From NCBI GenBank assembly GCA_963714095.1, contig OY970230.1, forward strand, positions 268,114 through 332,113: 64,000 nucleotides of DNA, read 5' to 3'. The stretch's first letter is position 1. Each line of letters starts with the position of its first letter. This stretch comes from Candidatus Gottesmanbacteria bacterium. GTDB taxonomy: Bacteria; Patescibacteriota; Microgenomatia; UBA10105; UBA927. A model generated the notes under the pieces. The model saw only the letters and a program-made list of their open reading frames with translations, searched no databases and was not told the origin of the DNA. Shown here piece by piece: positions 2,649 to 23,014 of the stretch. Position numbers and translations under genes: made by a program.

Positions 2649-2666
2649 TATGATAACCCTATCATT
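2649..2666. promoter_or_regulatory. inverted repeat ATGATA-N4-TATCAT plus AT-rich -10-like element in a 56-nt divergent intergenic region
   Basis: atgata (2650-2655) and tatcat (2660-2665) are exact reverse complements around the spacer accc. The repeat lies 6 nt upstream of the YfhO ATG (2672) and about 35 nt from the divergent GT39 start (2615). Confidence 0.3.
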
Positions 2667-2671
2667 ATAGC

Positions 2672-5080
2672 ATGAGAAAATATCTACCACTTCTGGCACT
2701 TATCGGCGTATGTCTTCTCTTCTTTTATAAAACGTTTCTATTCGGGCAGGTTCCGTTTCCGGGAGATCTTCTGTTGACTCAATATTCACCGTGGCGCCAC
2801 CAATCATACAGCGGATACGTGGCCGGTGCCGTGCCGAGCAAAGATCAATATTTTGATGTTATCCGCGAGTTATATCCTTGGAAAACTCAAGTCATTACCG
2901 CTCTGAAACACGGAATATTCCCTCTATGGAATCCCTATAATTTTTCCGGTGCCCCCCTTTTGGCTAACTACCAGTCTCAGGTATTTTACCCGCTGACCTT
3001 CGTCTATTTCCTGATGCCTCAAATTTCCGCCTGGACCATCATGGTTATCATCCAACCGATACTCGGCACTGTATTTATGTATTTATTTTCCACAGAAATT
3101 GGGCTGGGTGCCGACGCGGCAGTTCTGGCTGCACTACTCTTTAATTTTTCCAGTTTTGCGAACGTTTGGATGGAATTTACCACGGTGTGGCACACAATTT
3201 TGTGGTTGCCGCTTCTCCTTTATTTTGTCGAACGGGGTATAAAACAACGCACACTCTGCCTCTGGCAACAGATTATATTCATCATCGCGCTGTTTTGTGC
3301 GATCACCGCAGGCCACCCGCAGGATTTTATTGATACATTTTTGTTTCTTCTTTTATATACGTGTCTGAGAATTGCAACGGCACCAGGTTGGTCATGGCAG
3401 GAAAAAAAATCTTTTGTTTTTCATCCCATTCTTTTTATATTTGGGATTCCATTTTTCCTTGCTGCACCGCAGTTGTTTCCGACAATTGAACTCTTTAGAA
3501 ATTCCGCGCGTGTTGCACACGATTATCAGGGCATTATTCATACCATGCTTGTCCAATGGTGGCAGATACCTCTGATCGCCGTACAGGAATTATTCGGCAA
3601 TCCGGCAACAAAATCGAACATCACAGGCGATTATATCGGCAAAACACTCTCCGTTGGTGTCGTGGGGTTCTTTCTCGTACTTGCTTCATTCTTCCATAAA
3701 GTTGATTCATGGCATAAAAAATTTTTCGCCTGCAGCGCATTAGGCATTCTCCTCATCACAGTACGTACGCCGCTTACGGAGCTTTTATACCGATATCCCT
3801 GGCCGGTTCTCTCAACCGGTACACCCACAAGAATTTTGGTTATACTGATGCTTGCGCTTGCCATGCTGGCAGGATTCGGATACGACGCGGTCCGTCTGAA
3901 TAAAAAAATACCCGATAAACCATTACTACTCAGTTGGGTTATCTTTCTGTTCCTCTGGATTTTTGTGTTCATCCATCCGAACATCGGCGGTCTTACCTAT
4001 ACTATCGGTGCGGCATCCACCATGAAACGTGCTATGGTTATCGCAACCGGAATTTTAGGGTGTCTCACGCTTATCCTTTTTGCAAGCAGGTACAAAAAAT
4101 ATTTACTGTGGTTAGCCCTCCCGCTGGCAGTTGCGGAACTCTTCTATGGCTTTACCAAGTTCAATCCATTTGTCCCGATATCCTTCGTATATCCCCAAAA
4201 CAATCTCATCAGTCAACTGCAGAAAACGCCTGGCATTGACCGCTTTTGGGGATACGGGACCGCAGAAATCGAGGCAAACTTCGCAACGCAGGAGTACATC
4301 TATTCTCCTGACGGCACGGATCCTCTAAATCTACGATGGTACAATCAATTTATCCAAGCAAGCCGCGACGGAAAAATTGCAGCTACATTTGACAGAACCA
4401 CGCGATCTGACGCACAAATCCTCCCGGGATACGGGAAAAGCGATTTACCTTCCAATGAATTCCGTCTCCGGATCATGGATACCCTCGGAGTTAAATACAT
4501 CATTGACCGGCCGGAAAACCCCAAAGACAACAATACGTTCCCGGTTAACCGGTTCAAAATGGTCTGGCATGAGGATGACTGGACGATATATGAAAATCTT
4601 CTGTCTGCACCAAGATTTTTTCTTACGTCGGATGTCCGGCCATACGGCAACGCAACTGATTTTGAGTCGCAATTTTTTGCAAAAGATTTCAATCCAGGAA
4701 AAACGGTATTATTGCTACAAAAAGACCGAAACGAACTTCCACCTCTTGCCGGAAGCGGATCGGCAAAACTTATTTCCTACACACCAAACTCCATAAAAAT
4801 TTCTGTAAAGACCGATGCAAAACAATTACTATTTTTAAGCGACACGTTCGATAATGGATGGACGGCATCGGTAAACGGAAACCCAACGAAAGTCTATCAG
4901 GCAGATTATGCATTCCGGGGAGTTCTCGTACCTGCAGGAGAATCGACAGTTATCTTTACCTATCAACCACAGTCATTCCAATTGGGTCTGGGCGTCAGCG
5001 GATTCTCCTTCGTAATTTTTGCAGTCTACTGCATTGTAACTCTTCGATCGTCATCCAAACATAAAAAAGGAAAAAAATAA
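2672..5080 (+). CDS. YfhO-family polytopic membrane protein (GT-C superfamily, putative lipid-linked sugar transferase)
   Basis: 802 aa with about 13 TM helices and a C-terminal beta-rich soluble domain. It ends in the characteristic YfhO C-terminal pattern DNGWTASVNGNPTKVYQADYAFRGVLVPAGESTVIFTYQP. The N-terminus carries FPGDLL..YSPW. Confidence 0.7.
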   Translation: MRKYLPLLALIGVCLLFFYKTFLFGQVPFPGDLLLTQYSPWRHQSYSGYVAGAVPSKDQYFDVIRELYPWKTQVITALKHGIFPLWNPYNFSGAPLLANYQSQVFYPLTFVYFLMPQISAWTIMVIIQPILGTVFMYLFSTEIGLGADAAVLAALLFNFSSFANVWMEFTTVWHTILWLPLLLYFVERGIKQRTLCLWQQIIFIIALFCAITAGHPQDFIDTFLFLLLYTCLRIATAPGWSWQEKKSFVFHPILFIFGIPFFLAAPQLFPTIELFRNSARVAHDYQGIIHTMLVQWWQIPLIAVQELFGNPATKSNITGDYIGKTLSVGVVGFFLVLASFFHKVDSWHKKFFACSALGILLITVRTPLTELLYRYPWPVLSTGTPTRILVILMLALAMLAGFGYDAVRLNKKIPDKPLLLSWVIFLFLWIFVFIHPNIGGLTYTIGAASTMKRAMVIATGILGCLTLILFASRYKKYLLWLALPLAVAELFYGFTKFNPFVPISFVYPQNNLISQLQKTPGIDRFWGYGTAEIEANFATQEYIYSPDGTDPLNLRWYNQFIQASRDGKIAATFDRTTRSDAQILPGYGKSDLPSNEFRLRIMDTLGVKYIIDRPENPKDNNTFPVNRFKMVWHEDDWTIYENLLSAPRFFLTSDVRPYGNATDFESQFFAKDFNPGKTVLLLQKDRNELPPLAGSGSAKLISYTPNSIKISVKTDAKQLLFLSDTFDNGWTASVNGNPTKVYQADYAFRGVLVPAGESTVIFTYQPQSFQLGLGVSGFSFVIFAVYCIVTLRSSSKHKKGKK

Positions 5081-5086
5081 GCTAAA

Positions 5087-7597
5087 TTATGCTCTGTGTC
5101 CAAACCTGATGAGTCGGCTCATACAGCATACGATTACAATGCTGAGTATTATTCCCACGGCCGTAACGATTTCACCTATGGTAAGTGTTATCGGTGTATA
5201 GGTAAAGACGACAGTATGCTTCCCTTCAGGTGCCTCAACTGCCCGCAGGGTGTAATCCGCACGATAGAGTTCAGTAGGTTTACCGTCTATAGTTGCAGTC
5301 CATCCCGGATAGTAATTGTCGGTTAGTACTACGAATCCTGAAACAGGAGAGGCTATTGAAACAGTCACAGTATTGAGACCATAGGATGTTATTGTGGCTG
5401 ATGATGCCTGATCACCGGAATATTTCGGTAAGGCCGGTACTACGGGCACACGTTCCAAAACAACAGTAGAGTCTAAACGAACAGCGGGATCATACAGAGT
5501 ATCAATAATTTGTTGAGGATCACTTCGTACGATATAGGACCTTAGGAACATAACACGCGGTAACGCCTGCCTATACTGCCAAATACGCCATGTACTATCC
5601 TCCCATACGGTCGTAAACATTTCAGGAGGAAAACGTTTTTCGGTTGACTGTAAATCCGTGTATTCTCCTTTTTTGCTTTCAAGAATATATTTAACCCCAA
5701 AAAGCGACATAATCCGCAGGCGATAGGGATTTGAAGAATTAAGCGGGTCTATTTCAGACATTTCATAAAGATCCGTGTCACTTCTGCGGATAATTCCTCC
5801 AAGTTTTCCTTTGTTTGCGATAGTTGAAAGAAGCTCAGCGTATCGGCTTGATGAAAGATTACTATACCCATCCGTTGAAAACCACCGAAAATATTCCGGA
5901 AGGTTTTTTTCTATAAACGCATTCCCGTAGCCCCAAATCCGATCATATCCTGCAAGGTCAGTTAATTTGGTAATAACCGGCAAATTCGGGTAGACAAAGC
6001 GATTTTCACCGAAATACACATATTTATCTGCAAAATAGATACCGGATGCCGCCGTCAGAACGCATACATAAACAAAAACATCTCGTTTCGAAAATCTTGA
6101 AACAAAAAGTAAACCCCATCCTGCGAGCAAAAATGCCGTCGGTACAATAAGATTCCTGAGAGATACAGTTGCGTAATACGGAGCGATTTTCTTCAAGGAA
6201 AATAATTCTCCGCATACGACCAACGTTTTCCCAAGACACCAAAGAGAGTAAGAATGATAATAATGATTGATGCACCATAAACCAATGACGACAATCCATC
6301 CCGTTCCAAGAAATACACAGAAGCTAAGAAGTATCAAAACCATCCGTTTGCGGTTAGGCTTACTCAAAAAAGACTCTAACCCATAGCACGAAAGAATACT
6401 GAAAGAAAAAACCGATACGGCAAATATCCGCGTCGGGTATGAAGTTGAAAGAATAGGAATTTTAAGATAATACGGAACCCAACTTGTCGGTAATGCAAAA
6501 CACATTGAAAAACATACAACTCCTATGATTGTCCAGAAAATAACCGTTTTTTTTCTAACTTGCAACATTGCGTAAATCGCAAACAGTAACGGAATAATGC
6601 CGATAAAAATTGTTTTTTCAAAATAGAATCCGCTGCCGCCAAAATAATTATACGTCGCCGGGTTGCCCCAATAATCAGGTGCGAACAGCGTAATAATATT
6701 CCTGAAAGGCAGGAGATCCTGCCGGAATACAAAACTTGCGTCATTCGTTCCCCGCGGAGAGAGTACAAAAGCCTGAATCGACGGAATAAGCTGTATGCTT
6801 TCAATCAGAACAGAACAAAGAACCGCAAAGATTATAACCCAGGCCGAACGAGCTGCATTCTTTTGTCCGCGAAGCCTCAGAAAGCAATAAACATTCCACA
6901 AAAAAACAACCGCATATACGTACGCCGACATTTGCAAAAATCCGGCAAACGCAGAAGATACCAGCGAAAAAAGAAGTAAGAAAAAATCAAACGTGTCATC
7001 GTACCGCTCCCATACCCTATTGGAAGCATAAAGCGCTAGCGGCAACCATAAAAAACTATGTTCAATTACCACAGATTCCTGCCAGTAAACTACCATCCAC
7101 CCACTCAGTGCATAGACAAATGAACCGAATGCGGCCAGAGGTATACGGAACTTCAGAGATCTCAAAAATATGTACATGAACACAATGGACAGTATCGGTT
7201 GTATGACAACGAGGAAATTCCATCCTTCTATAGTGGGAAGAGCAGCCGCAATCCATGACAGTGGATACCAAACAGCAGGAGTTGATGCCGCCATAAATGG
7301 CGCACCGCTGTAAATATATGGATTCCACAACGGTAATACTCCCCTCCATAATGCATCCTGAAGTAATTTTCTGTCTGGATATGACTCCCGGATAATATCA
7401 AAACCTATTGGCTTATTCGGTGGTCCGTTTGGATATTCCGGAACGGGCTCATACCTCCATGGTGAATACTCTGTCACTAATAAATTTGAGGGAAATACCG
7501 TTTTATGATCGAAAAAAAACTGATGGAAAATAGCAATCGTAATACCCAAAGCGGCAACAAGGACAATGAGTAGCTCAAACAAGAATATTTTTTTCAT
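5087..7597 (-). CDS. YfhO-family polytopic membrane protein (paralog)
   Basis: The 849-aa ORF is trimmed to MKKIFLFELLIV (ATG at 7597). C-terminal motif: YPGWTATIDGKPTELYRADYTLRAVEAPEGKHTVVFTYTP. Its 3' end is convergent with 2672..5080, with a 6-nt gap. Confidence 0.7.
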   Translation of the reverse strand: MKKIFLFELLIVLVAALGITIAIFHQFFFDHKTVFPSNLLVTEYSPWRYEPVPEYPNGPPNKPIGFDIIRESYPDRKLLQDALWRGVLPLWNPYIYSGAPFMAASTPAVWYPLSWIAAALPTIEGWNFLVVIQPILSIVFMYIFLRSLKFRIPLAAFGSFVYALSGWMVVYWQESVVIEHSFLWLPLALYASNRVWERYDDTFDFFLLLFSLVSSAFAGFLQMSAYVYAVVFLWNVYCFLRLRGQKNAARSAWVIIFAVLCSVLIESIQLIPSIQAFVLSPRGTNDASFVFRQDLLPFRNIITLFAPDYWGNPATYNYFGGSGFYFEKTIFIGIIPLLFAIYAMLQVRKKTVIFWTIIGVVCFSMCFALPTSWVPYYLKIPILSTSYPTRIFAVSVFSFSILSCYGLESFLSKPNRKRMVLILLSFCVFLGTGWIVVIGLWCINHYYHSYSLWCLGKTLVVCGELFSLKKIAPYYATVSLRNLIVPTAFLLAGWGLLFVSRFSKRDVFVYVCVLTAASGIYFADKYVYFGENRFVYPNLPVITKLTDLAGYDRIWGYGNAFIEKNLPEYFRWFSTDGYSNLSSSRYAELLSTIANKGKLGGIIRRSDTDLYEMSEIDPLNSSNPYRLRIMSLFGVKYILESKKGEYTDLQSTEKRFPPEMFTTVWEDSTWRIWQYRQALPRVMFLRSYIVRSDPQQIIDTLYDPAVRLDSTVVLERVPVVPALPKYSGDQASSATITSYGLNTVTVSIASPVSGFVVLTDNYYPGWTATIDGKPTELYRADYTLRAVEAPEGKHTVVFTYTPITLTIGEIVTAVGIILSIVIVCCMSRLIRFGHRA

Positions 7598-9318
7598 GGT
7601 GACTGAAATCCCGATAAACATTCTGTTTGAACGCACCGGTATAATTTAGAGGAATCAACACCCTCAAATAAGACATCGCCTGCCTTATCCTTTACGGTAA
7701 ATTCCACCGGTACGGGAATTGCAGGAATCACATTAGGGACGGACTTTGGAAATTCCGAAGGCGCCCCGATAAGAAGATCATGAGCATGAATAATTTCGTC
7801 ATAACCGGGAAGTGTGGGAAGGAACTCTATCGAATGAATTTGCTTCACCCGAACCCAGCCGTTTGCCTCCAAAACTTTTTCAATTCCCTTTCCGGACTGA
7901 AACGCAGCAGGATCATACCGGGTGTAAAACAAATAATAAATATATTGCTTGGAATCGTTTACCCTGCTTGAGATAATGATCGTATCATACACAGGTATAT
8001 CCGTGCGGATTTTTTGCACCAGTTCCTCATACCCGAAGTGAGAAAATTGCGAATACCGGTACGGAAAAAATGTCCAATACTCAACAATAAAACTTCCCGC
8101 CGCTGCCAAAAAACACAGTACAACAAACGACAATGCCAATTTCCTGTATTTCATGTGAGACAAAAGCGACATAATGCCGATCGCAATCAGTATCGGCCAT
8201 ACGGGATACGAAACAAAAAATCGTCCGTACTGCCCGTCAGAGGTCAGGCTATCCGGAATTGCGGAAAGAAACAGCCATCCGACCAGCAGGAGGCGCACCG
8301 GCGACACATCCAAAAATATAACGATCAACGCAATGATCAGAAGCGGATAGTCAAAAAGATACAATAATCCCCGGCCGGGTAAAACAGAATATTGCGTACT
8401 TGTGCCGTAGACAGCCAGAAGATTCGGCGAGTAATGATTGAGATAATTCGTAAAAAATTTTGTCCCGTACGCGCTGTATTTATTAAAAACCAGTCGACAA
8501 ACAGCCCGCGGAAGCTCACGCCCGCACGCCCCCTGTTTTTCATTAACTGTATCTATAAGTTCTGAGTTATTTGTAAGGTTCACCTGCCGGGTACGGGTGG
8601 CAGCAGTACCGGTCCCCGCTGATATCAAAAGACCGGTAAAAAGAAACATAAAACACAGAGCAGCGAATGCAATTTGTTTCCAAAAACGCATATATGCTTT
8701 TCTGAAAAGATAGACCGTCAGCGCAAGTAGCAGCGGAACAAGTACAATGTTGGCCGTGTACACATAGAGACTCAGTCCTAAAAGTACCGCTCCGACGATA
8801 ACCAATTTTCCGTGACGTCTCCCGCCAAGCATAATCAACATTCCGCAGGACACGAAAAACACCGACGAAGTTTCCTCAAGTCCGATTCTGCTCATGCCGA
8901 TATGCCATGGTGAGATAGCCAAAAGAAAGGCGGAAAGTAAAGCAAGAGACTCGGATGAACGGCCAAACAACTCTTTCACAAGAAAATAGACAACAAGAAC
9001 GGTCAATGAACCGAAGAATGCGGAAGGAAACCGCACGGCAAACGGCGTCAAACCAAAAGCGGCAATTGAGGGAATAGACAGATACGTATAGGCGGGCAGA
9101 CGGTAATCACCGAAACCCCGGAACGAAGTAACCGGCCACGACACTGCCCATTGATCCTTACCGGTATGAATAAGGGCATATACGTCGTAGGCTGCATCCG
9201 CTTCATCATCAACAATACCCGCGGGATTTTTCCCTAATCCGATGAAACGTACCGATATCCCGAGAAGAAAAATAAGGATAAGTACCACGAGCGATGCAGA
9301 AATTCTCAATCGTTTCAT
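7594..9318 (-). CDS. GT-C membrane glycosyltransferase, family 39 / PMT-ArnT-like
   Basis: 574 aa, starting MKRLRISASLVVLILIFLLGISVRFIGLG. Loop motif: IVDDEADAAYDVYALIHTGKD. It is polytopic. Its TGA overlaps the ATG of 5087..7597 (ATGA at 7594-7597). Confidence 0.75.
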   Translation of the reverse strand: MKRLRISASLVVLILIFLLGISVRFIGLGKNPAGIVDDEADAAYDVYALIHTGKDQWAVSWPVTSFRGFGDYRLPAYTYLSIPSIAAFGLTPFAVRFPSAFFGSLTVLVVYFLVKELFGRSSESLALLSAFLLAISPWHIGMSRIGLEETSSVFFVSCGMLIMLGGRRHGKLVIVGAVLLGLSLYVYTANIVLVPLLLALTVYLFRKAYMRFWKQIAFAALCFMFLFTGLLISAGTGTAATRTRQVNLTNNSELIDTVNEKQGACGRELPRAVCRLVFNKYSAYGTKFFTNYLNHYSPNLLAVYGTSTQYSVLPGRGLLYLFDYPLLIIALIVIFLDVSPVRLLLVGWLFLSAIPDSLTSDGQYGRFFVSYPVWPILIAIGIMSLLSHMKYRKLALSFVVLCFLAAAGSFIVEYWTFFPYRYSQFSHFGYEELVQKIRTDIPVYDTIIISSRVNDSKQYIYYLFYTRYDPAAFQSGKGIEKVLEANGWVRVKQIHSIEFLPTLPGYDEIIHAHDLLIGAPSEFPKSVPNVIPAIPVPVEFTVKDKAGDVLFEGVDSSKLYRCVQTECLSGFQSP

Positions 9319-9368
9319 ATGAACACCCTACGTCTCCTGTATTATAGTGCAATAATCCAAAAAACATC

Positions 9369-9374
9369 TATAAT
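9369..9374 (+). promoter_or_regulatory. TATAAT -10-like hexamer 6 nt upstream of the ATG at 9381 (possible short-leader or leaderless promoter in a 62-nt divergent region)
   Basis: The region reads ctataatgcggatATG. No obvious Shine-Dalgarno fits between the hexamer and the ATG. Confidence 0.3.
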
Positions 9375-9380
9375 GCGGAT

Positions 9381-11105
9381 ATGAAGCGGACTTTTGCAAA
9401 AAACTATATACCGCTCATTGGAATTGTTATTCTTGCATCGCTGATGCGGTTCGTGTATCTGGACCGAATTCCTAATGCAATAGGCGGCGACGAACTTGTG
9501 TATCCGATTACGGCAAAATCGGTCGCTCTCACGGGAAAAGATCTTACGGGAACATGGAATATTTTTCAGTCATTGATTTTCCGGTACCCTCCCAACCAAC
9601 AGGCAGCTGAACTTCCGTATTTTCTCCACCTGCCGCTGAGCGGGTATTTCCCGTTTTCAGTACTCGCTGTACATCTGCCGTTTGCAATTCTTTCAGTCTG
9701 TACTGTACTTCTTTTCTATTTACTCGCGCAACTGTTATTCGGAACACCGGCGGGAATAGCTGTCGGGCTTGTCGCTGCAGTTAACCCGTGGCTTGTCGTC
9801 ATGGGGCGCACCGGATATGAATCTACTCCCGCAACGTTCTTTTATTTATTAGGATTTTACCTGTTATTGCGGCTGAAATCATGGAACATCCTGTGGAGTA
9901 TCATTCCTTTTGTATTAGCATTTTATTCCTATATAGCCACAAAAATAATCTTTATTCCATTAATCGTTCTTACCGCAATCATCGCCTATGTCCGGCGCGG
10001 GCATAAATATAAAACCCAATATATTCTTGCCGGACTCTTCTCAATTCTTTTCGTTTCCTTTTTTCTTATTGCCCTCGCGACATCTTCTCGAACATCGCGT
10101 TTATATCAAATACTTCTGCCGAATGCTGCGGAAATAACGACACACGTAAACGAATCACGAAAACTTTCAATAAATTCCCCTTTTGAAACAATCCTCGTAA
10201 ACAAATATTCCGTCTATATAAAAACTCTTACAAATAGATTGTTCGAGATCATTTCCCCTTCGTATCTCTTTGTAGAGGGAGATCTATTTTTCCCCGTACA
10301 CGGATACGGGATGTTTTATCCTGTTGATTTCATAGTATTTCTGTTGGGCTGCCTTTTTCTCTTCACGAAAAGAAAACTCTATTTTTTATGTGTGATGATA
10401 TATTTTCTCATCGGCGCGCTTCCTCAAATGCTGTTTCGTTCACAGAGTGAGTATTACTCTTTGCATTTGACAATGATGTTTCCGGTTATGATCATGTGTA
10501 TAGGATATGGGATATATGCAGTTCTCGCCTCTTTTCCAAAACAGTATAGATATCTTCTAACAGGGTGTATCACGATAGTATATCTGGGTAGCGTCATCAA
10601 TTTTGGTTATATCTATTTCTTCGAACACCCATTGCAGGAGTACGGAGATGTTCATATGCGCATCTTATCAAGATATATTCTCATGAACCAAAAAAAGAAT
10701 ATCCCTGTTTCCGTTTATTCCGATTCAAATATCGATGTCTTGAGTAAATATCTCTTTTATACCAATTCGCTCAACCGGAAGACAATTACTCTACTGAGAA
10801 AAACAAAATTTTCCGACGGATTCGGACTGAGCGGAATACATTTTTACGGCTGCAGAAAATCACTGGATATGGGCGCTACTTCCGGGGTGGTCATTATAAA
10901 CGCTTCCTGTTCAACAGACACAATTCCGTTGCATCTGAGCATATCAAGACTTGCGGACGGAGGGGAAATATATAAAATCTACAACGACAGCGTGTGTAGT
11001 AATTTTCATTTACAACAATACCCAAACCATATAACCATTGCAGAGCTCGACATCGATTCTTTAAGTGAAAAACAATTTTGTGAAACGTATATAAACCAAC
11101 GATAA
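9381..11105 (+). CDS. GT-C membrane glycosyltransferase, family 39 / PMT-ArnT-like
   Basis: 574 aa. N-terminal loop motif: IGGDELVYPITAKSVALTGKDLTG. It has many TM helices and a C-terminal soluble domain. Confidence 0.7.
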   Translation: MKRTFAKNYIPLIGIVILASLMRFVYLDRIPNAIGGDELVYPITAKSVALTGKDLTGTWNIFQSLIFRYPPNQQAAELPYFLHLPLSGYFPFSVLAVHLPFAILSVCTVLLFYLLAQLLFGTPAGIAVGLVAAVNPWLVVMGRTGYESTPATFFYLLGFYLLLRLKSWNILWSIIPFVLAFYSYIATKIIFIPLIVLTAIIAYVRRGHKYKTQYILAGLFSILFVSFFLIALATSSRTSRLYQILLPNAAEITTHVNESRKLSINSPFETILVNKYSVYIKTLTNRLFEIISPSYLFVEGDLFFPVHGYGMFYPVDFIVFLLGCLFLFTKRKLYFLCVMIYFLIGALPQMLFRSQSEYYSLHLTMMFPVMIMCIGYGIYAVLASFPKQYRYLLTGCITIVYLGSVINFGYIYFFEHPLQEYGDVHMRILSRYILMNQKKNIPVSVYSDSNIDVLSKYLFYTNSLNRKTITLLRKTKFSDGFGLSGIHFYGCRKSLDMGATSGVVIINASCSTDTIPLHLSISRLADGGEIYKIYNDSVCSNFHLQQYPNHITIAELDIDSLSEKQFCETYINQR

Positions 11106-11108
11106 GGT

Positions 11109-12731: not shown

Positions 12732-13633
12732 GATAAAACCTCAAGCTGCGCGTCGGGCACACTGAACAAACGACGCTGTACGGACCGGTGGTTTACAATC
12801 TCCTGAAATTTCAATAAAGCAAGAAAATACCCCTGCACCATAAGGCTGTCGCCGCTGAGAATCGTCTGCATAATCCTCACGGGGGTCCAAAGCATATGTG
12901 CGGCTAAAATATTCACATCCGTAACATTTTTCCAGATAAAAATATACTGGTTCCTGTAGACAATCCGTTTAACTTCCTTTGATGTAAATTCGCGTTTAAT
13001 TTTACCTTCTTCGTGAAAGTGATGTACGATACTTTTTGGCTCAAATAATGTCTTCCAACCGGCTTTCCGTGCACGGTACGACAAATCTATGTCTTCCCAG
13101 TAAAATGGGTTATAGAGCATATCCATACCACCGAGCTTTTTCCACATGGACTTCCTAAATGCTCCGCTACCGCCCGACACCCAAGCAGTCGAAACTCTGC
13201 CTACCTCGCCCCGCGCATGAATGTAATATCCCCTCTCCCAATGTGCTACTCCCCTACCGCGCAATATGGTTTTTCCTTCTTCTAAACTTTTTTCAAGACA
13301 ACCGACAGCAAATACGTCAGGATCCACAAAATGTGCGATGAGCGGTGCTAAATAATCATGCTTCGGTTCAACATCCGTATTCAAAAGTACGACGATATCA
13401 CCGGTCGCACACGCCACACCCGCATTCACAGTAGCAGCAAACCCCTCGTGCTTACTCCGCTCGATCACAATCACCGTAGGAAAGTTTTTTTTGAGATACT
13501 CGACGGAGCCGTCGGTCGACATATCATCTGCTACAATAACTTCTGCTCCCAGGGAAGCACTCATGACGTTGGGCAGGTGCTTTTTCATGAGTGATACGCC
13601 GTTCCAGTTGGGAATAACTATAGATACCCGCAT
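12728..13633 (-). CDS. family 2 glycosyltransferase (GT-A fold)
   Basis: 301 aa. N-terminal Rossmann-like region: VSIVIPNWNG...EVIVADDMSTDGS. DXD-like motif: LNTDVEP. It overlaps the upstream gene by ATGA. Confidence 0.8.
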   Translation of the reverse strand: MRVSIVIPNWNGVSLMKKHLPNVMSASLGAEVIVADDMSTDGSVEYLKKNFPTVIVIERSKHEGFAATVNAGVACATGDIVVLLNTDVEPKHDYLAPLIAHFVDPDVFAVGCLEKSLEEGKTILRGRGVAHWERGYYIHARGEVGRVSTAWVSGGSGAFRKSMWKKLGGMDMLYNPFYWEDIDLSYRARKAGWKTLFEPKSIVHHFHEEGKIKREFTSKEVKRIVYRNQYIFIWKNVTDVNILAAHMLWTPVRIMQTILSGDSLMVQGYFLALLKFQEIVNHRSVQRRLFSVPDAQLEVLS

Positions 13634-13652
13634 ATATGATAGTATAACGTAT

Positions 13653-14945
13653 ATGAAGCCGCTCCGACAATTTATCCGTAATCCCTATTTCCTGATTGCC
13701 CTCCTGTTATTTTTTATCCACACGTTTTTTATGTTTTACAATCTGGAAAAATGGGCGTCGTTCGACTGGGATCAGGTTGATAATGCATGGGCAGCAATAC
13801 GTATCCTTGTAGGCCATAACTATCCGTTGGTCGGAATGGTTGCCAAACAAAACAGCGGATTCTATATTGGGCCGATCTATTATTATCTTGTTGCTGTCTT
13901 TTATTTCTTTACCCGCCTGAATCCTATTGCTTCACCCATATTAGCAGGGTGTACCGCTCTATTCAGTTATTGGGTCATCTATGGAGTTTCCCGCAGGATA
14001 TTTAACGAAAAGGTTGCGCTCATCTCGTGTTTTATTTATACGTTTTCATCGGCCATCATACTCGCGGAACGGTCACAATGGCCGGTAAATTTTATTGCCC
14101 CCGTAGCACTTCTCATTTTCTATTTTCTGTATAAAGTTATGACGGGCGATGCAAAATATATCATTCATCTGGCAGCTGCCGTCGGATTGTCATTTCATAT
14201 CCACTTTACGGCAATTTTTTATCCGATCATCATTCTTTTATGTCTTCCCCTGATCCCAATACACAAAAAAACATGGAGCTATATCCTTGTTGCCGTTCCG
14301 GTGTTCGTGGCTTTTATGATTCCTCAGGCGATCTATTATACCCAGGCAAACCATCACAGCAGCCTTGGAAATTATTCCGGGTATTTTCAGTCCTACTATC
14401 ACGGTTTTCACCTCCAACGGATGCTGCAACTATCCCATGATGCGTTTATCAAATTTCAGTCGGTCCTGGAAAAACCGTATGTCATACTTCGGAATGCAGT
14501 ATTTCTTTATATCCCCCTTTTTTTCTTGGCGTATAAGCAAAAGCAAAAAAATCCCTATTGGCTAAAACTTTTTTATCTTCTATGTGTATGGATTCTTGTC
14601 CCATGGATAGTATTCACCACATATAGCGGAGAGATCAGCGATTATTATTTTAATATCCAGCTTTACGTTGCTGTAATCCTATTTGCCTATCTGACCTATT
14701 GGATTTGGGAGACGAAAAAGTTCATACTCCGCACGGCCATCGGCATGTTCTGGCTCTACTTTACCATTGCAAACGTTCAAATATTTTTTAACACGCATGA
14801 CAGTAATTTTATCAAAAATATAATTGCGGTTCAGCAAAGTGTCGACGGTGGAAAACTGATCAATTTTAGCGAAGGTGATCCTAAATCATATCTCGATTTT
14901 TATGATTCATATACGCAACACAAGCCATTACCATTCAAATTGTAA
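13653..14945 (+). CDS. polytopic GT-C-like membrane protein (ArnT/GT39-like, shorter form)
   Basis: The ORF 13491..14945 is trimmed to MKPLRQFIRNPYFL (ATG at 13653), which avoids a 140-nt overlap with the divergent GT2. It shares the GPIYYY motif with 31753..33339 and has about 11 TM helices. Family assignment is tentative. Confidence 0.5.
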   Translation: MKPLRQFIRNPYFLIALLLFFIHTFFMFYNLEKWASFDWDQVDNAWAAIRILVGHNYPLVGMVAKQNSGFYIGPIYYYLVAVFYFFTRLNPIASPILAGCTALFSYWVIYGVSRRIFNEKVALISCFIYTFSSAIILAERSQWPVNFIAPVALLIFYFLYKVMTGDAKYIIHLAAAVGLSFHIHFTAIFYPIIILLCLPLIPIHKKTWSYILVAVPVFVAFMIPQAIYYTQANHHSSLGNYSGYFQSYYHGFHLQRMLQLSHDAFIKFQSVLEKPYVILRNAVFLYIPLFFLAYKQKQKNPYWLKLFYLLCVWILVPWIVFTTYSGEISDYYFNIQLYVAVILFAYLTYWIWETKKFILRTAIGMFWLYFTIANVQIFFNTHDSNFIKNIIAVQQSVDGGKLINFSEGDPKSYLDFYDSYTQHKPLPFKL

Positions 14946-17189
14946 AACGATAGTATGATTCCCTTTCGGTACGAGTATCCCCTGAAACAGATAGTTTGTT
15001 CTGTATATGGGAGTCGGAGCCGAATCAACGTATGCTTTCCAACCCGAGTCGTACATATTTGCAATCACAACAAAATGATCATGAGTCAGAGACGAAAATG
15101 CACGTAGCTCAGACATGGTTTCAGACAGGATCGATACGCGATCGCCGGGAGCAACCGGCGACTGCACGACGGATAATTGATCCTCGATAACTGCCTGTTT
15201 CGCCGGATTAAACGACGTGTTATACAGCATATCCATGCTCTGTTGTTTTGAATTTGCATGCAAAACCGACTCTACGGGATATATCCTGGGCAATTCCTTC
15301 GTGTAGCGATAAATTTTTGTTTGACCTTCCTGATACACGAGTTCTAACCCCGGATTCTTCAGATCATTCAAAGATAAAATATATTTGACGTTCAGAAGCG
15401 GCAGGAGCAGAGAATTTGTGGTTGATACGGTGATAATCCGGTTAAAACCGAACGGCGGGGTAATATCCGGTTTCTGACGGTTGAGCGCCGCAATGAACTC
15501 CTCGTATCTGGCATCGTACACCGGATCATACCCCTCAACGGATTCTATGCCGTAATATGCAGCTGTATTTGGCGGCAGTAAACGAGCATCCAGACTCATC
15601 ACGCGGAACGGTGTTGGTTGCGACTGAAGAAATATGATTGTCTGCGTCATGGGGAAAAAATACTCCTGCGGTGTAAACGGCGTAAATTTCCACCCGAACC
15701 GGAATAAGTCAAATGATACGATAACGATAATCAATCCCGCAACCGCATATCTATATCGTTTTTTAAGATATACAGCAGACACAAGAACGATGCTGCTGAC
15801 AATAAATAGTATGCTTGGTAATACGAGATTGCGCCTGGCAATAAGTAAGTCTGCTGAAAAATCGGGGTTATGATTCAATTTCGGCATAAAAATCACATAT
15901 ACCCACATTCCCGCCAGCAAAAAAAACACTATTCCGATGCCGTAAAAAATATATTTATTCTTATTCCTTAAGAAGAAATCCATACCGAGGGCTGCCAAGG
16001 CTGCCAGACAAAAATCAACCAGGACCATAAGTCTCGTCGGCTGCATCGTTGAGAGTACCGGCACATGGAGTTCGAAAGGAATTTTTGAAATAGGATTGGG
16101 CAATATAAACAGAAAACCAATTCCTAACGTTACCGCAATAAAGCGTGTCAGCCGGTCTTTACGGACAAGAACAGCATAAAAAGCACATATGAGGGGCAGG
16201 ATACCTATATACCCAATGAACTCTCCATAATTCCAAATACCCCAATAATTAAGCGTTGCGGGATTTCCAAAAAAGTCAGGCGCTATAAACTGTACCAAAT
16301 GTTGCCAGGGTAAAAACCAACCATCTTTGAGCCAAGCACCGGCATCGCCAATTCGCGAACTATGTGTCAACGTTTGTAAAAATGGCACCCATTGCACTGA
16401 AGACAAAATAACAGCAAAAAACACGGCGCTAATTATCCACCAACCATAGCGTTTTTGCGAACTATTCCATAGTTGAAATACCGCGTATACAGCGGCGAAT
16501 ATACAAATATAGAATGCCACCTGCGCATGTCCCGCCAGTAACACAAACGTTGCCGATGCCGTACACAGCGCAGTCCAAAATAATTTTGTTTTTTTACTAT
16601 TGGTATCAACAATCTTATCGATCGCAAGGAGAATAAGAGGTAACCACAAAGCGGTTTGATCAATTGTCCCCCAGGTGAGCCAGGAAATAAAAAATCCGCA
16701 GAAACTCCAGACTATCGCGCCCAACAAGGACGCCAACAGGTGAATATTTTTCCGTTTAAGAAAAAGATATAAAAATAATCCGCCGAGAACCGGCTGCAAA
16801 ATAATCATTATTGTCCAGGCAACAGGAAATGAGAACACGAAAAAGAGAATATTCAGCGGGTAGAACGCTCCCGCCTGTATATTTCCCACAAGAGACGTTC
16901 CGGAAAATGTATAGGGATTCCATGAGGGCAACTTTCCCTGTTTAAGACTATCTATAACGAGTTTTTTCCAGGGAATCTGCTGACGGACCGGGTCCGTAAT
17001 AAGAAAATTTTTATACGGAACGCCTCTCGGATTTGTCGCGGCGTATAAATCTCTCCATGGATGATATAAACCGATAAGCGTATCTGTGGGAACCGGCAAT
17101 CTACCTGAAAGAAGTGTCGGATAAAAAAATACCGCGCAAATGACGATAAAAACGGCAGGAATCACAATTTTCTGAAATACTTTTTTCAT
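14928..17189 (-). CDS. YfhO-family polytopic membrane protein (paralog)
   Basis: 753 aa. C-terminal motif: DSGWKAYVDSAPTPIYRTNYLFQGILVPKGNHTIVLQFEW. Its 3' end overlaps the convergent gene 13653..14945 by 18 nt. Confidence 0.7.
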   Translation of the reverse strand: MKKVFQKIVIPAVFIVICAVFFYPTLLSGRLPVPTDTLIGLYHPWRDLYAATNPRGVPYKNFLITDPVRQQIPWKKLVIDSLKQGKLPSWNPYTFSGTSLVGNIQAGAFYPLNILFFVFSFPVAWTIMIILQPVLGGLFLYLFLKRKNIHLLASLLGAIVWSFCGFFISWLTWGTIDQTALWLPLILLAIDKIVDTNSKKTKLFWTALCTASATFVLLAGHAQVAFYICIFAAVYAVFQLWNSSQKRYGWWIISAVFFAVILSSVQWVPFLQTLTHSSRIGDAGAWLKDGWFLPWQHLVQFIAPDFFGNPATLNYWGIWNYGEFIGYIGILPLICAFYAVLVRKDRLTRFIAVTLGIGFLFILPNPISKIPFELHVPVLSTMQPTRLMVLVDFCLAALAALGMDFFLRNKNKYIFYGIGIVFFLLAGMWVYVIFMPKLNHNPDFSADLLIARRNLVLPSILFIVSSIVLVSAVYLKKRYRYAVAGLIIVIVSFDLFRFGWKFTPFTPQEYFFPMTQTIIFLQSQPTPFRVMSLDARLLPPNTAAYYGIESVEGYDPVYDARYEEFIAALNRQKPDITPPFGFNRIITVSTTNSLLLPLLNVKYILSLNDLKNPGLELVYQEGQTKIYRYTKELPRIYPVESVLHANSKQQSMDMLYNTSFNPAKQAVIEDQLSVVQSPVAPGDRVSILSETMSELRAFSSLTHDHFVVIANMYDSGWKAYVDSAPTPIYRTNYLFQGILVPKGNHTIVLQFEW

Positions 17190-18220
17190 CGGGTCATATC
17201 CGAAAGTAAACCGTCAAATGCATTTGTAAATGTTTCGACACTAAACTTCTTGGACTCCGTAATTATGTTTTCACGCTCCTGAGTTTGAACGGATCTATTT
17301 TTAATTTTAATAATTTCCTGAGTGAATGCTATGCACTCATCAGGTGTACTCCAAAGATTCTTTTGTACAATCTCCGACTGACCACCACCGTTAAATACAA
17401 CAGGGATACACCCTGCCGACATTGCTTCAACCGTCGTAATACCGAAATGCTCCATATTTTCCGGACGGATCTCTCCGAATCCAGCTGCGTGCCAATAAAT
17501 AAGCGACTCGTTATATAATTTTGTCAGTTCATTAAACGAAGCGTTTGGAAAAAATTTGACGGGTAATCCTTCTCCCAATCGTTGCAATGATTCATAATAT
17601 TTCTTATCTCCCTGTTGCAATCCTCCCGCAAGTTTCAGTTCAAATCCAGACAGGCGTTTTGTATGTGCTGCTTTTCGAAACATCTCTATAAGTACGTTCT
17701 GTTTTTTGATCGGATGGAACCGTCCGACGGAAAGAATAATATTTTTCTTCACGCTTTCTCCCTGTTTTATCGGCTCGACCGGTGGGTAAATCACGCTTGC
17801 CCGTTTCCCGACACGCGGATCCAGATTATCCCTCGTAAAATCTGAGTTACAGACTATCGACTGAAAACGCGTCAGTTTAACCGGGTGAACGAAAATTTTC
17901 CGAAACGGCACCTGAAAATGTAATATATTACGGCGCGCAAATGTCGTAGGGATACTTCCGTCCGTCAGGAAAAAAATAAGGTCATATCCACTACTTACCG
18001 CCAGTTTTTTAAATAGGTTTTTTGCTTTAAAAACATTTTCCACCATTCGAACCCGTTTAAGATCAATGTGTAAACGTTTTTCCGATTCCTCTACGATCTT
18101 GGGGTTATCCCAAAAAAGAACGACGTCGTGGATCCGTGACCAGTGAGAGGCAAGCGTTAATACGTACCGCTCTCCGCCGCTCATGCTGTCGAAATACGGG
18201 TTGTAAAATCCTATTTTCAT
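17186..18220 (-). CDS. family 1 (GT4-type, GT-B fold) glycosyltransferase
   Basis: 344 aa. The signature EHFGITTVEAMSAGCIPVV matches the E-x7-E glycosyl transferase group 1 motif. There are ATGA overlaps at both ends. Confidence 0.8.
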   Translation of the reverse strand: MKIGFYNPYFDSMSGGERYVLTLASHWSRIHDVVLFWDNPKIVEESEKRLHIDLKRVRMVENVFKAKNLFKKLAVSSGYDLIFFLTDGSIPTTFARRNILHFQVPFRKIFVHPVKLTRFQSIVCNSDFTRDNLDPRVGKRASVIYPPVEPIKQGESVKKNIILSVGRFHPIKKQNVLIEMFRKAAHTKRLSGFELKLAGGLQQGDKKYYESLQRLGEGLPVKFFPNASFNELTKLYNESLIYWHAAGFGEIRPENMEHFGITTVEAMSAGCIPVVFNGGGQSEIVQKNLWSTPDECIAFTQEIIKIKNRSVQTQERENIITESKKFSVETFTNAFDGLLSDMTR

Positions 18221-20475
18221 ATGTGCTTTTTTACTGTACTCAAGATAAGTATACCTAATCCTCCCACACTCAAAAGTATTCCCAAAAGCATTTCCTGCGG
18301 CTGATAGATAAATTGTACCGTATGTGTCCCCGCAGGGACACTGACAGCCTGAAAATCGTAATCAGCTCTGTACATAGGGGCAGCCACACCGTCTACTCTG
18401 GCCTGCCAGCCGGAATCATAAACGTCGGATAAAAAGAGCAATTTTGGAACACGTGATGTTGTTTGAACCGTAACATGTGTCTGTTCATAATCCCGTATAA
18501 CTGCGCTTCCGCTCCCCGTTTTCGGCTCAATACCGGGTTTTTGTTCCAAAACTACAGAATCGCGCCTGTTAAATCCAGCTGCAAATAACGCATTCAGAAT
18601 TCCCTGCTTTTCAGTTACAACAGTATAGGATGAAGCCAGAAATGCCCGCGGATATGCATCGGAATTTTCCCAAACTTCATACGCATCATCAGCGTACACT
18701 TTTGTGTACGAGGGATATTTCCAGAACGGATATGTCCAAATATTTCTTCCGTCTGACTTCCGATACAGAATATACCGAGATCCCAGCAATTCTAACATTT
18801 GTTCCGTATACTGTCCGTTTTTGTCCAAAAATACAACCGAGCGGTTAATCGGTTCCAACATCCCGTTTGAAGCGGCTGAAATGAACTCACCATAACGCGC
18901 CTGATATACGGCATCATAGCCTTCCATAAGCGGAATATGAAACTGCACGCCAACTTCTCCGCTCCCGATATTGCCAAAAACTCTGTCATTTCCAACAACG
19001 GACGTGAGGTAGGAAAGCGATTTTACCTCAGGATACACATACTGCCGCGGGTCAAACGGCATCCATTTGATGGCAAATCGGAATACGTCAACGGCAGTCA
19101 TCGCAAGAATTACGGTTACTATTCCAATCTTTAACCACTTGTTACGGACAAGTCCCAGAATAAACAACATCGCACCTCCTACTATAAGCGCACTGGGTAT
19201 TACCAAGTTGTGCTTCGCGATAACTAATTTATCGATGGGTAACGGCCGCACTAGAAATAGAACCAGCCACGTGAGTCCTAAAAGCCCCAGACATGTACAT
19301 GCGAAATAAATAATTTTTTTCTTCCCGTTGTGATTCCAATCCGTAATAAGTGCGTCAAAGCCGAATGCGGCAAGGGTTGCGAGCGAAAAACTAGTCAGAA
19401 GAATAATCCGCGATGCTGCACTTCCCGAGAGAACGGGAATTTGCAAAACATAGATCAAATCATTCAAAGGTGTCGGCAATGCAAATAATAAAGAAAGAAC
19501 GGCAAGTAGTACGAAAAACCAGCCTTCACGTAGTGTTTTTTTCGTCGTTGCATAAACAGAGAGCATAAGCGGGATGACCCCGACAAATCCTGCCCATTCT
19601 GCGTAGTGCCCGAACCAGTCATTTCTTGTAACTGGATTTCCGAAAAAATCAGGGGCTATGAAAGTCCAAAGATACTGCCAAGGTATAATCTCTCCTTTAA
19701 ATACGGCGCCTCCCCGCTCCGAAAGCGCAAAAGAATGCAGTCCTAAAAAAATTTGCGGTGCGGAAATAATTAAACCTGTCAGTACATACCAAAACGTACG
19801 CCACTGTTTTTCCCAAAAAATATACGCAAGAGCCGCACCAATCACATAAATACTGACCTGGAAATGACCGGACACAAGTGATAGTGCGACCCCGAGACTT
19901 ACCGCCCACCTGCGTTTTTTGAATATTCCCCAGAATATAAACGGCAAAAAGAGTGCAGCATACCCGAGCGTGCCATACGCCATCCATACAACCATAAATC
20001 CGCAAAACATAAATGCAATTGATGCAAGAAGTGACGCTTCCCTGGATCTGCCCAAACTCCTCACGAAGAGATACGTGAATAAGCCCGCAAGCAAAGGCTG
20101 GAGAAGAATCATGATGCTCCAGGCATCAATAAACGGAAAAACAAAAAATAAAAGGTTAAATGGCGAAAATACGGCGCTCTGATAATTTCCCGCCTGTGCG
20201 GTTCCGGAAAAACTATACGGATTCCACAGCGGGACCTGCCCCGATTTCCATGTATCTATTGTCAGCTTTTTCCACGGATAAATCTGTGTTATCACGTCCG
20301 GCATCGCGTTGTTTTTTACCGGCATGCCGTACTGGCTGCTCCACGGCGGAAAAAACGTGGCAAGGTACGTCGACGGAAACGGAACCAATCCTTTAAAAAA
20401 ATATGGGGCAGAAAAAATCAGCCACAATAATACTATGACAAATAGCGGCCAAAATTTTTGAAGAAATGATTTCAT
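18217..20475 (-). CDS. YfhO-family polytopic membrane protein (paralog)
   Basis: 752 aa. C-terminal motif: DSGWQARVDGVAAPMYRADYDFQAVSVPAGTHTVQFIYQP. Confidence 0.7.
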   Translation of the reverse strand: MKSFLQKFWPLFVIVLLWLIFSAPYFFKGLVPFPSTYLATFFPPWSSQYGMPVKNNAMPDVITQIYPWKKLTIDTWKSGQVPLWNPYSFSGTAQAGNYQSAVFSPFNLLFFVFPFIDAWSIMILLQPLLAGLFTYLFVRSLGRSREASLLASIAFMFCGFMVVWMAYGTLGYAALFLPFIFWGIFKKRRWAVSLGVALSLVSGHFQVSIYVIGAALAYIFWEKQWRTFWYVLTGLIISAPQIFLGLHSFALSERGGAVFKGEIIPWQYLWTFIAPDFFGNPVTRNDWFGHYAEWAGFVGVIPLMLSVYATTKKTLREGWFFVLLAVLSLLFALPTPLNDLIYVLQIPVLSGSAASRIILLTSFSLATLAAFGFDALITDWNHNGKKKIIYFACTCLGLLGLTWLVLFLVRPLPIDKLVIAKHNLVIPSALIVGGAMLFILGLVRNKWLKIGIVTVILAMTAVDVFRFAIKWMPFDPRQYVYPEVKSLSYLTSVVGNDRVFGNIGSGEVGVQFHIPLMEGYDAVYQARYGEFISAASNGMLEPINRSVVFLDKNGQYTEQMLELLGSRYILYRKSDGRNIWTYPFWKYPSYTKVYADDAYEVWENSDAYPRAFLASSYTVVTEKQGILNALFAAGFNRRDSVVLEQKPGIEPKTGSGSAVIRDYEQTHVTVQTTSRVPKLLFLSDVYDSGWQARVDGVAAPMYRADYDFQAVSVPAGTHTVQFIYQPQEMLLGILLSVGGLGILILSTVKKHI

Positions 20476-21221
20476 TTATTCTTTTTGTTTTGTTGCAGCT
20501 CCCATAATTTCGCATAGGTAACAAACATGCTAAAAGCCTGATAGATGCTTTCAATCAAGCCGACCGTACCTGCTTTCCATCCCTCTTGAGTAATAAACGA
20601 TCGCCAAAAACCGGTCATCATCACGCGGATGAACCTCCACCAGACAACCGGCGGATGGTGTGCATCAACCCGCAATTTTGCTTCCAAAATTGACCACTCG
20701 TTGGTTTTTGCAACCATTTCCTCAAGGGTCCGGTGTGTTCTGTGTACAAGAGGATTCGTAAGTGTTCCGACGGTACCGACATACAACGGAGTTTCATGTA
20801 ATGTCCCGTGCCATCCTTGCAGTGATCTTCGCAAAAATAACCGTTCAACTTTATCCTGATACGGCCAGTGGCGTCCTAAAAAATACGTATTGCGTTTGAT
20901 AAAATAGACGGATATAGTATTAGCACCGATAACGTGCTGTATTTCTTTTTGCAGTTTTTCACCAACCTCTTCGTCCGCATCGATGTACAAAACCCATGTC
21001 CCCGTGGCTTCCCGAAGACCTAACTCCCGTAAACCGGAAAAGTCTTTTTCTTTACTCTCTACAACTTTTGCTCCATGCTCTTTAGCTATCTCGACTGTTT
21101 TGTCTGTTGAACCATTATCGACAACTATAGTCTCATCTGCCCAAGAAAGATTGTCCAAACAGGCACCGATCCGTTCCTGTTCGTTTTTGGTAATGATGAT
21201 GGCACTGAGTGTTGGTTTCAT
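20472..21221 (-). CDS. family 2 glycosyltransferase
   Basis: 249 aa, starting LSAIIITKNEQERIGACLDNLSWADETIVVDNGSTDKT. DAD motif: YIDADEEV. Confidence 0.8.
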   Translation of the reverse strand: MKPTLSAIIITKNEQERIGACLDNLSWADETIVVDNGSTDKTVEIAKEHGAKVVESKEKDFSGLRELGLREATGTWVLYIDADEEVGEKLQKEIQHVIGANTISVYFIKRNTYFLGRHWPYQDKVERLFLRRSLQGWHGTLHETPLYVGTVGTLTNPLVHRTHRTLEEMVAKTNEWSILEAKLRVDAHHPPVVWWRFIRVMMTGFWRSFITQEGWKAGTVGLIESIYQAFSMFVTYAKLWELQQNKKNK

Positions 21222-23010: not shown

Positions 23011-23014
23011 ATTG

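Follow-up and report, generated by a model that had tools for sequence, protein, structure and literature searches.

The window analysed here, a stretch of 64,000 nucleotides (nt) of contig OY970230.1, stems from a Gottesmanbacteria-like member of the Microgenomates (Patescibacteria) and encodes four long membrane proteins of the YfhO family, designated Y1 to Y4. These proteins are most probably anciently separated paralogs that function as GT-C membrane glycosyltransferases and putatively transfer sugars from polyprenyl phosphate to acceptors at the cell surface. Their homology, family membership and fold, the conservation of their core residues, the age of the paralogy and the synteny were established by the analysis. 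Patescibacteria have small genomes (about 1 Mb), and attachment to host cells is their presumed lifestyle, which makes their surfaces important. In this genome, more than 38 kb appear to be given to surface glycosylation, comprising 14 GT-C-type genes, among them those of the four conserved YfhO orthogroups, and genes for the supply of sugar nucleotides. The orthogroup map and the conserved operon presented below could guide annotation of, and experiments on, envelope glycans of Patescibacteria.

The YfhO genes and their C-terminal signature

The four genes and the Pfam scores (PF09586, YfhO) of their products, given with the lengths in amino acids (aa), are as follows:

2672-5080, plus strand: Y1, YfhO-family putative GT-C glycosyltransferase, 802 aa, 64.7 bits
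5087-7597, minus strand: Y2, YfhO-family putative GT-C glycosyltransferase, 836 aa from ATG (844 or 849 aa from alternative starts), 64.8 bits
14928-17189, minus strand: Y3, YfhO-family putative GT-C glycosyltransferase, 753 aa, 99.5 bits
18217-20475, minus strand: Y4, YfhO-family putative GT-C glycosyltransferase, 752 aa, 92.0 bits

All four open reading frames were present where an original prediction, made from the sequence alone, had placed them, and every peptide quoted in it was found. Its assignment of the proteins to the YfhO family was confirmed as well, as each of them passed the gathering threshold of PF09586 (28.5 bits; the model comprises 835 positions). Pairwise BLASTP comparisons of Y1 to Y4 gave full-length alignments with 25-32% identity and E-values from 1e-71 to 3e-120, a similarity far exceeding chance.

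The original prediction had also described Y1 and Y2 as tail-to-tail neighbours separated by 6 nt; exactly positions 5081-5086 (GCTAAA) lie between both stop codons. A 4-nt overlap joins the start of Y2 (ATG) to the stop of the PMT_2 gene upstream of it, linking both in an operon, and overlaps of the same length link the genes for GT2, Y4, GT4 and Y3 in another. Likewise, the 3' ends of the convergent PMT_2-type gene at 13491-14945 (plus strand) and of Y3 overlap by 18 nt. The packing of both convergent pairs, PMT_2/Y3 and Y1/Y2, leaves no space for terminators.

The six-frame translation of the window contained exactly four matches to a strict regular expression of the C-terminal motif, one in each YfhO gene:

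4856-4945, plus strand: YfhO signature motif of Y1 (GWTASVNGNPTKVYQADYAFRGVLVPAGES), forming the last beta strands (E730-764) ahead of the terminal helix 767-801
5216-5305, minus strand: YfhO signature motif of Y2
14955-15044, minus strand: YfhO signature motif of Y3, with the protein end 8 residues further
18322-18411, minus strand: YfhO signature motif of Y4

The motif, GW..VDG..YRADY..G..VP.G.HT in the four proteins and PGW..VDG..RA.Y..R.V.VP.G.H as the signature of the family, aligns to profile positions ~753-835 of PF09586 and therefore represents the end of the YfhO model. The original prediction had regarded it as diagnostic of the four proteins. As a signature of YfhO this holds, but the motif is not special to Y1 to Y4 and occurs family-wide. 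A tblastn search of plasmids, which retrieved annotated YfhO proteins of Proteobacteria and Bacteroidota and yielded no YfhO of Firmicutes, revealed it in proteins of Microvirga (Alphaproteobacteria; PGWEVWVDG...RANLLFRGVEVAAGKRRVEF) and Parabacteroides (Bacteroidota; PGWEVTIDG...RADWILRAMLVPAGEHQIVF). In Y1, Y2 and Y4 the best Pfam stretch consists of the C-terminal ~80 residues, which represent the sole stretch in Y1, and the Pfam matches of the Microvirga and Parabacteroides proteins likewise rest on the last ~80 profile positions. The match of Y3 spans profile positions 75-603.

A profile search with the four proteins recovered 77,663 cluster representatives (E ≤ 1e-3) among 1.84 billion, 19,347 of them with E ≤ 1e-30, and several relatives are labelled 'YfhO family protein' by NCBI. 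Y1 to Y4 are thus further members of a known and very large family, which will not surprise a specialist. The four proteins reveal no new kind of system; the family is enormous, and relatives already carry the name YfhO.

Topology, predicted structure and conserved residues

AlphaFold2 models were obtained for Y1 (alignment of 99 sequences; pLDDT 94.1, pTM 0.92) and Y3 (pLDDT 89.9, pTM 0.92). Both share a common plan, in which a terminal transmembrane (TM) helix is found only in Y1. The model of Y1 consists of a helical TM bundle (residues 5-497), a soluble domain (498-766) and the terminal helix (767-801). The soluble part is divided into a mixed alpha/beta region (511-604) and a beta-sandwich (607-764), of which the motif makes up the last five strands. 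The original proposal of a C-terminal, beta-rich soluble domain is thereby borne out, and its estimate of about 13 TM helices was approximately right, as the bundle together with the terminal helix suggests ~13-14. A stringent hydropathy scan found 10-11 strongly hydrophobic segments. That the proteins end with the motif, as had been stated, applies to Y3, which stops right after it, whereas Y1, Y2 and Y4 continue with a final TM helix and a basic tail. A terminal hydrophobic helix is also present in Y2 and Y4, and the last helix typical of YfhO thus occurs in three of the four paralogs.

The domain of ~270 residues following the TM bundle, i.e. the alpha/beta region plus the beta-sandwich, is predicted to be extracytoplasmic. 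The basic N terminus (MRK) and the basic C-terminal tails (e.g. RSSSKHKKGKK) are compatible with loop 1 and the beta domain facing outside.

The terminal TM helix was found to be absent from Y3 and its closest orthologs (loci L002, L014, L042, L047 and L058) and is kept by nearly all members of the Y1, Y2 and Y4 groups. In the wider Y3 clade, an exact 'GW' is missing from the last 110 residues in 36 of 54 members.

We know of no solved YfhO structure, and for this reason the fold comparison alone was informative; searches of the PDB with sequence profiles built from the 4-sequence and the 99-sequence alignments gave no match even at E ≤ 10. The best solved matches in a Foldseek search were AftD, ArnT, PglB and STT3 (AftD and ArnT for Y3), with TM-scores of 0.3-0.5, which is similarity at the generic GT-C level. 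According to the models, Y1 and Y3 have the GT-C transmembrane fold.

Across 164 homologs, 60 positions were at least 85% identical. They include, in the numbering of Y1, K57, D62, W86-N87-P88-Y89, R280, D306, G309-N310-P311, R387, K496, R524, R578, R648, W730 and G756. The family-invariant polar residues K57, D62 and WNPY86-89 lie in the first extracytoplasmic loop, and R280, D/E306, GNP309-311 and R387 follow later in the N-terminal TM part. Each paralog retains 54-59 of the 60 core residues, D62 and R280 among them, and Y1 possesses the conservative E306. A single aspartate in the loop after TM1, conserved in >85% of the 164 homologs, corresponds to D62 in Y1, D67 in Y2, D66 in Y3 and D60 in Y4. 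GT-C enzymes usually have conserved acidic residues (DXD or a modified form) in an extracytoplasmic loop, mostly loop 1. A canonical DXD motif was detected in none of the four proteins. D62 and the conserved D/E306 are candidate acidic residues, and a catalytic role for them would be putative. A conserved DXD was likewise not found in YfhO by Rismondo et al. (PMC5836110). Judged by these residues, none of the four proteins resembles a pseudo-enzyme, and pseudogenisation was rejected with the core residues being intact.

The strongest group-specific positions are 60 and 61, just before D62, which read YF, GF, IT and MP in the four groups. This might be a small hint of altered surroundings of the active site. 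A shared core with diversified specificity, as suggested originally, would fit the data.

Age of the paralogy

Whether the four genes arose by recent duplication within the locus or are anciently distinct had been left to alignment and phylogeny, and the result is on the side of an ancient origin. The closest orthologs in other genomes reach 74% identity for Y1, 74% for Y2, 64% for Y3 and 69% for Y4. The original prediction had made its case dependent on Y1 to Y4 being mutually closest relatives; they are not, since each of them is nearer to foreign orthologs (64-74%) than to any of the others (25-32%). Their paralogy and family membership are left intact by this result.

A neighbour-joining tree of 164 sequences (757 columns, 100 bootstraps) placed each paralog in a clade of its own together with proteins of other genomes: Y1 with 46 sequences (bootstrap 100), Y2 with 21 (bootstrap 97; 86 for 38 sequences), Y3 with 53 (bootstrap 91) and Y4 with 21 (bootstrap 100). 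The branching order of the four orthogroups is highly uncertain, the split (Y1,Y2)/(Y3,Y4) having a bootstrap value of only 30%. Because of the low mutual identity, the high identity to foreign orthologs, the separate clades and the synteny described below, Y1 to Y4 are old, separately maintained orthogroups.

Tandem or in-locus duplications that diverged recently within this genome could be imagined from the clustering of the genes inside 18 kb, the adjacency of two copies and the almost superimposable C-terminal motif. Such an origin is extremely improbable in view of the identities and bootstrap values (91-100) given above, and the arrangement is also seen in genomes with orthologs of only 40-74% identity. 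It was rejected on the basis of tree and synteny.

Conserved operon and synteny

Y4 and Y3 are part of an operon with the following further genes, to which a GT2 gene downstream of Y3 is added:

23015-24469, minus strand: Wzx-like (Polysacc_synt_3) flippase at the head of the operon (Pfam E 3.8e-52; synteny)
22111-23106, minus strand: GT2 (Pfam), upstream of Y4 in conserved order
21218-22138, minus strand: GT2 (Pfam), upstream of Y4 in conserved order
20472-21221, minus strand: GT2 (Pfam), upstream of Y4 in conserved order
17186-18220, minus strand: GT4 (Glycos_transf_1, Pfam) between Y4 and Y3, overlapping each of them by 4 nt
12728-13633, minus strand: GT2 (Pfam), following Y3 orthologs in conserved synteny

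The order Wzx-GT2-GT2-GT2-[Y4]-GT4-Y3-GT2 is kept in 56 GTDB loci, which were found with Y3. The operon is conserved over lineages of Microgenomates even where the Y3 orthologs are merely 33-64% identical (e.g. L013, L017, L023 and L035). In nearly all of the 56 loci, the GT4 gene is flanked by genes of the Y4 and Y3 types or immediately precedes Y3. The insertion of Y4 is optional. Y4 is present in 22 of the 56 loci, where the orthologs adjoining those of Y3 are 41-69% identical, and is absent from another 22 with room for it. Usually it lies between the third GT2 and the GT4 gene; in three loci it precedes that GT2.

Orthologs of Y1 and Y2 appeared on common contigs in 16 cases, as judged by matching longest-contig sizes. 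The whole layout, Y4-GT4-Y3-PMT_2-GT2-PMT_2-PMT_2-Y2-Y1 followed by four PMT_2 genes, was recovered on a JGI contig (L058), the Y1 and Y2 orthologs of which are 74% identical to Y1 and Y2 of the window.

The titles of the 56 loci name Gottesmanbacteria, Levybacteria, Curtissbacteria, Woesebacteria and Patescibacteria, and some records bear titles that are evidently generic. Many contigs with an operon of the Microgenomates type (L001, L003, L011, L017 and others) are titled 'uncultured Gammaproteobacteria bacterium', and others Sulfotelmatobacter, Limnocylindrales or Saccharimonadales. These titles seem to be generic or wrong and not to reflect the real taxonomy.

Comparison with characterised systems

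The founders of PF09586, B. subtilis YfhO (BSU08610), S. aureus YfhO and L. monocytogenes Lmo1079, belong to the same Pfam family as Y1 to Y4. For YfhO of B. subtilis, 13 TM helices and a loop of 389 residues before the last helix were predicted (PMC5836110). The proteins described here resemble it in their ~13 TM helices, in the large extracytoplasmic domain ahead of the last TM helix (with the exception of Y3) and in the C-terminal signature. Putative counterparts of the GT2 (GT-A) enzymes and of the flippase of the three-component CsbB/GtcA/YfhO systems are encoded nearby (PMC5836110, PMC8035078). However, the sequences are very distant, with Pfam recognizing only the last ~80 residues in Y1 and Y2, and four paralogs plus about ten other GT-C genes occur instead of one YfhO. 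The flippase candidate of the operon is of the Wzx type and not a small GtcA, Y3 lacks the final TM helix, and the host belongs to the Patescibacteria, a lineage for which no description of teichoic acids was found.

A second group for comparison are the streptococcal protein O-glycosyltransferases PgtC2, PgfM1 and PgfM2, GT-C enzymes with a YfhO domain that cooperate with a GT2 polyprenyl-phosphate sugar synthase (GtrB, PgfS; bioRxiv 10.1101/2024.05.05.592596). The small GT2 genes of the window show their best NCBIfam similarity to PgfS, and the window also encodes a Pro/Thr-rich, membrane-anchored protein. Faint similarity to PgfM1 and PgfM2 of S. mutans was restricted to Y2 and Y4 (19-22 bits in NCBIfam, C-terminal ~65 residues only). 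With ~20 bits in comparison to equivalog cut-offs of 1400 and 1500 bits for PgfM1 and PgfM2 (NF047589, NF047590), Y1 to Y4 are not orthologs of these proteins, and protein acceptors would be hypothetical here.

The mycobacterial arabinofuranosyltransferase AftD uses decaprenyl-phosphate-arabinose as donor and binds an acyl carrier protein. With ~1,300 residues it is much larger than the proteins of the window, to which it is 10-12% identical with no match at the sequence level (PDB 6w98, 6wbx).

The 'connected component 27' of Durairaj et al. is a dark, YfhO-like GT-C family of bacterial proteins (bioRxiv 10.1101/2023.03.14.532539). Most of its members bear the title 'YfhO family protein', the YfhO domain annotation covers them only in part, and structurally they match STT3 and PglB. 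Compared by description only, its members (representative A0A7X7MB17) have a median length of 665 aa versus 750-840 aa for Y1 to Y4. Divergent YfhO members such as Y1, Y2 and the Microvirga and Parabacteroides proteins are caught by Pfam mainly or only via the last ~80 positions, and this may relate to the dark component (bioRxiv 10.1101/2023.03.14.532539).

Proposed function and alternative explanations

The proposed mechanism is modelled by analogy on three-component systems, which consist of a GT-A enzyme (CsbB, GtlA, GtrB or PgfS), a flippase and the GT-C protein YfhO. In such systems YfhO acts together with the GT-A enzyme and the flippase on teichoic acids (PMC5836110, PMC8035078), and the streptococcal YfhO acts on Ser/Thr-rich protein regions (bioRxiv 10.1101/2024.05.05.592596). 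In the window, cytoplasmic GT2 enzymes would attach sugars to polyprenyl phosphate, a protein with a GtrA domain or of the Wzx type would flip the lipid-linked sugar, and each YfhO paralog would then move the sugar onto a surface acceptor outside the membrane. Candidate acceptors would be a polymer resembling teichoic acid, a polysaccharide or a surface protein rich in Ser, Thr and Pro. Putative donor machinery is encoded nearby by the GT2 genes starting at 24445, 30999 and 33324 (the last with a GtrA TM domain) and the Wzx-like gene at 23015. We infer the donor type, the acceptor, the sidedness of catalysis and the non-redundancy of Y1 to Y4 from this comparison; the persistence of four orthogroups side by side since before the divergence of the Microgenomates would imply four non-redundant donor or acceptor specificities.

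Several points weigh against this assignment. Searches of the literature for YfhO or for mannosyltransferases together with Patescibacteria or the candidate phyla radiation were without result. None of the four proteins matched an NCBIfam equivalog. The only Pfam stretch of Y1 and the best one of Y2 comprise just the C-terminal ~80 residues, so that their full-length homology to canonical YfhO follows by transitivity, via Y3 with its match to profile positions 75-603 and via Y4, which matches the Microvirga YfhO with 62% coverage. For the characterised YfhO proteins of B. subtilis, Listeria, S. aureus and streptococci, the Pfam model and two annotated plasmid-borne YfhO proteins served as proxies. 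A search for specificity positions gave only 6 strict group-specific sites, which were not clearly enriched in any region. Evidence from the sequences for diversified specificity is therefore thin, and the diversified loops of the original prediction are unsupported beyond positions 60-61. Moreover, the GT4, the chain-extending types of GT2 and the Wzx-type flippase of the operon would suit an oligosaccharide donor equally well.

The last point leads to the main rival explanation, according to which at least Y3 would act not as a monosaccharide transferase but, comparably to PglB, AglB, WaaL or Wzy, as an en-bloc transferase, a ligase or a polymerase. Its donor would be a polyprenyl-diphosphate oligosaccharide, assembled by the GT2 and GT4 enzymes and flipped by Wzx, and its acceptor a protein or the cell wall. 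In the 56 loci, exactly one GT-C protein is encoded beside a MOP/Wzx flippase and several soluble chain-building GT2 and GT4 enzymes. PglB, STT3 and AglB, which count among the best structural matches, are oligosaccharyltransferases, and no homolog of Wzy, WaaL or PglB was seen in the window. Against this reading, an initiating phosphoglycosyltransferase (Bac_transf, Glycos_transf_4) was likewise not found in the window. AftD, the top structural match, transfers monosaccharides, as does ArnT; the structural similarity is generic, and every characterised YfhO uses polyprenyl-monophosphate monosaccharides (PMC5836110, PMC8035078, bioRxiv 10.1101/2024.05.05.592596). En-bloc transfer by Y3 is thus rather unlikely. 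If it were true, the YfhO family would extend from monosaccharide decoration to PglB- or WaaL-like transfer of whole glycans. With the same low probability, the Y3-type YfhO may be the oligosaccharyltransferase or ligase of the Microgenomates; Y4, Y1 and Y2 would then add lineage-specific decorations shaping the surface of the episymbiont.

It appears very unlikely that some of the four proteins are catalytically dead or non-enzymatic, serving as flippase, scaffold or regulatory partner, with the pairs Y1/Y2 and Y3/Y4 forming heterodimers. The conserved neighbouring gene pairs and the loss of the terminal TM helix in Y3 would be in line with such partnerships. GT-C heterodimers such as Pmt1-Pmt2, itself among the structural matches, are known, and an additional role of YfhO in flipping the lipid intermediate was considered possible by Rismondo et al. 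(PMC5836110). Nevertheless, all four proteins contain almost the full set of 60 core residues, among them the aspartate of loop 1 and the invariant arginine and lysine residues. In addition, Y3 is kept without Y4 in 22 loci and is consequently independent of it.

The surrounding glycosylation island

Judged from the gene content, the part of the window from 972 to ~39,855 is a surface-glycosylation island. Its GT-C content amounts to 14 genes in ~32 kb (972-33369), namely four YfhO, two short YfhO-like, seven PMT_2-type (one of them sub-threshold) and one GT87 gene. The further components comprise seven GT2, one GT4, one Wzx-like flippase and genes of the dTDP-rhamnose type and for UDP-glucose dehydrogenase. 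Beside the genes given above, the following were identified:

972-2699, minus strand: PMT_2-type GT-C gene, divergent from Y1 (Pfam PMT_2 41.5 bits)
7594-9318, minus strand: PMT_2-type GT-C gene between the Y1/Y2 and Y3/Y4 pairs (Pfam)
9381-11105, plus strand: PMT_2-type GT-C gene between the pairs (Pfam, sub-threshold)
11109-12731, minus strand: PMT_2-type GT-C gene between the pairs (Pfam)
13491-14945, plus strand: PMT_2-type GT-C gene between the pairs (Pfam)
24445-25188, minus strand: small GT2 (Pfam) resembling polyprenyl-phosphate sugar synthases (PgfS, ArnC and dolichyl-P-hexose transferase types)
25160-26803, minus strand: shorter GT-C-like paralog, ~540 aa, with a looser Y(Y/F)PGW..V C-terminal module
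26800-28422, minus strand: second shorter GT-C-like paralog, ~540 aa, with the same type of module
28326-29900, minus strand: PMT_2
29845-31020, minus strand: GT87
30999-31751, minus strand: GT2 resembling dolichyl-P-hexose transferase and PgfS
31753-33369, minus strand: PMT_2
33324-34571, minus strand: GT2 fused to a GtrA-type TM domain, the GT2 part resembling polyprenyl-P sugar synthases
34453-39855, minus strand: nucleotide-sugar supply (dehydratases/epimerases, UDP-glucose dehydrogenase, RmlD, RmlC, nucleotidyl transferase)
42685-43545, minus strand: surface protein of 286 aa with an N-terminal hydrophobic segment, a lamin-tail domain, a Pro/Thr-rich linker and a C-terminal TM anchor

Three of the seven GT2 genes thus resemble polyprenyl-phosphate sugar synthases, one of the three being fused to the GtrA domain; all NCBIfam similarities of the GT2 genes of the island are far below the equivalog cut-offs. 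The products of the short GT-C pair are 28% identical to each other (E 6e-51) and carry the looser YfhO C-terminal module (AYFPGWHYIV... and VYYPGWGVTVDD...). Pfam gave sub-threshold matches to YfhO and PTPS_related for 25160-26803 and nothing for 26800-28422, and hhalign of the pair against the four-protein profile gave a probability of 87.5%.

Fourteen GT-C genes in ~32 kb represent an extreme local density in a genome with a main contig of ~1.09 Mb, on which database copies of all four YfhO proteins are encoded, with 100% identity in the case of Y2. The island extends past the left edge of the window: on a contig of the same organism (L057, 12124-19349), three further genes for membrane proteins of ~520-545 aa and a GT2 gene were detected.

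The linker of the surface protein encoded at 42685-43545 comprises ~70 residues and contains 50% Ser plus Thr in its densest 30 residues. Because of its likeness to the Ser/Thr-rich regions glycosylated by the streptococcal YfhO, this protein is a plausible acceptor for O-glycosylation by the GT-C enzymes of the island, although it should be regarded as a lead only.

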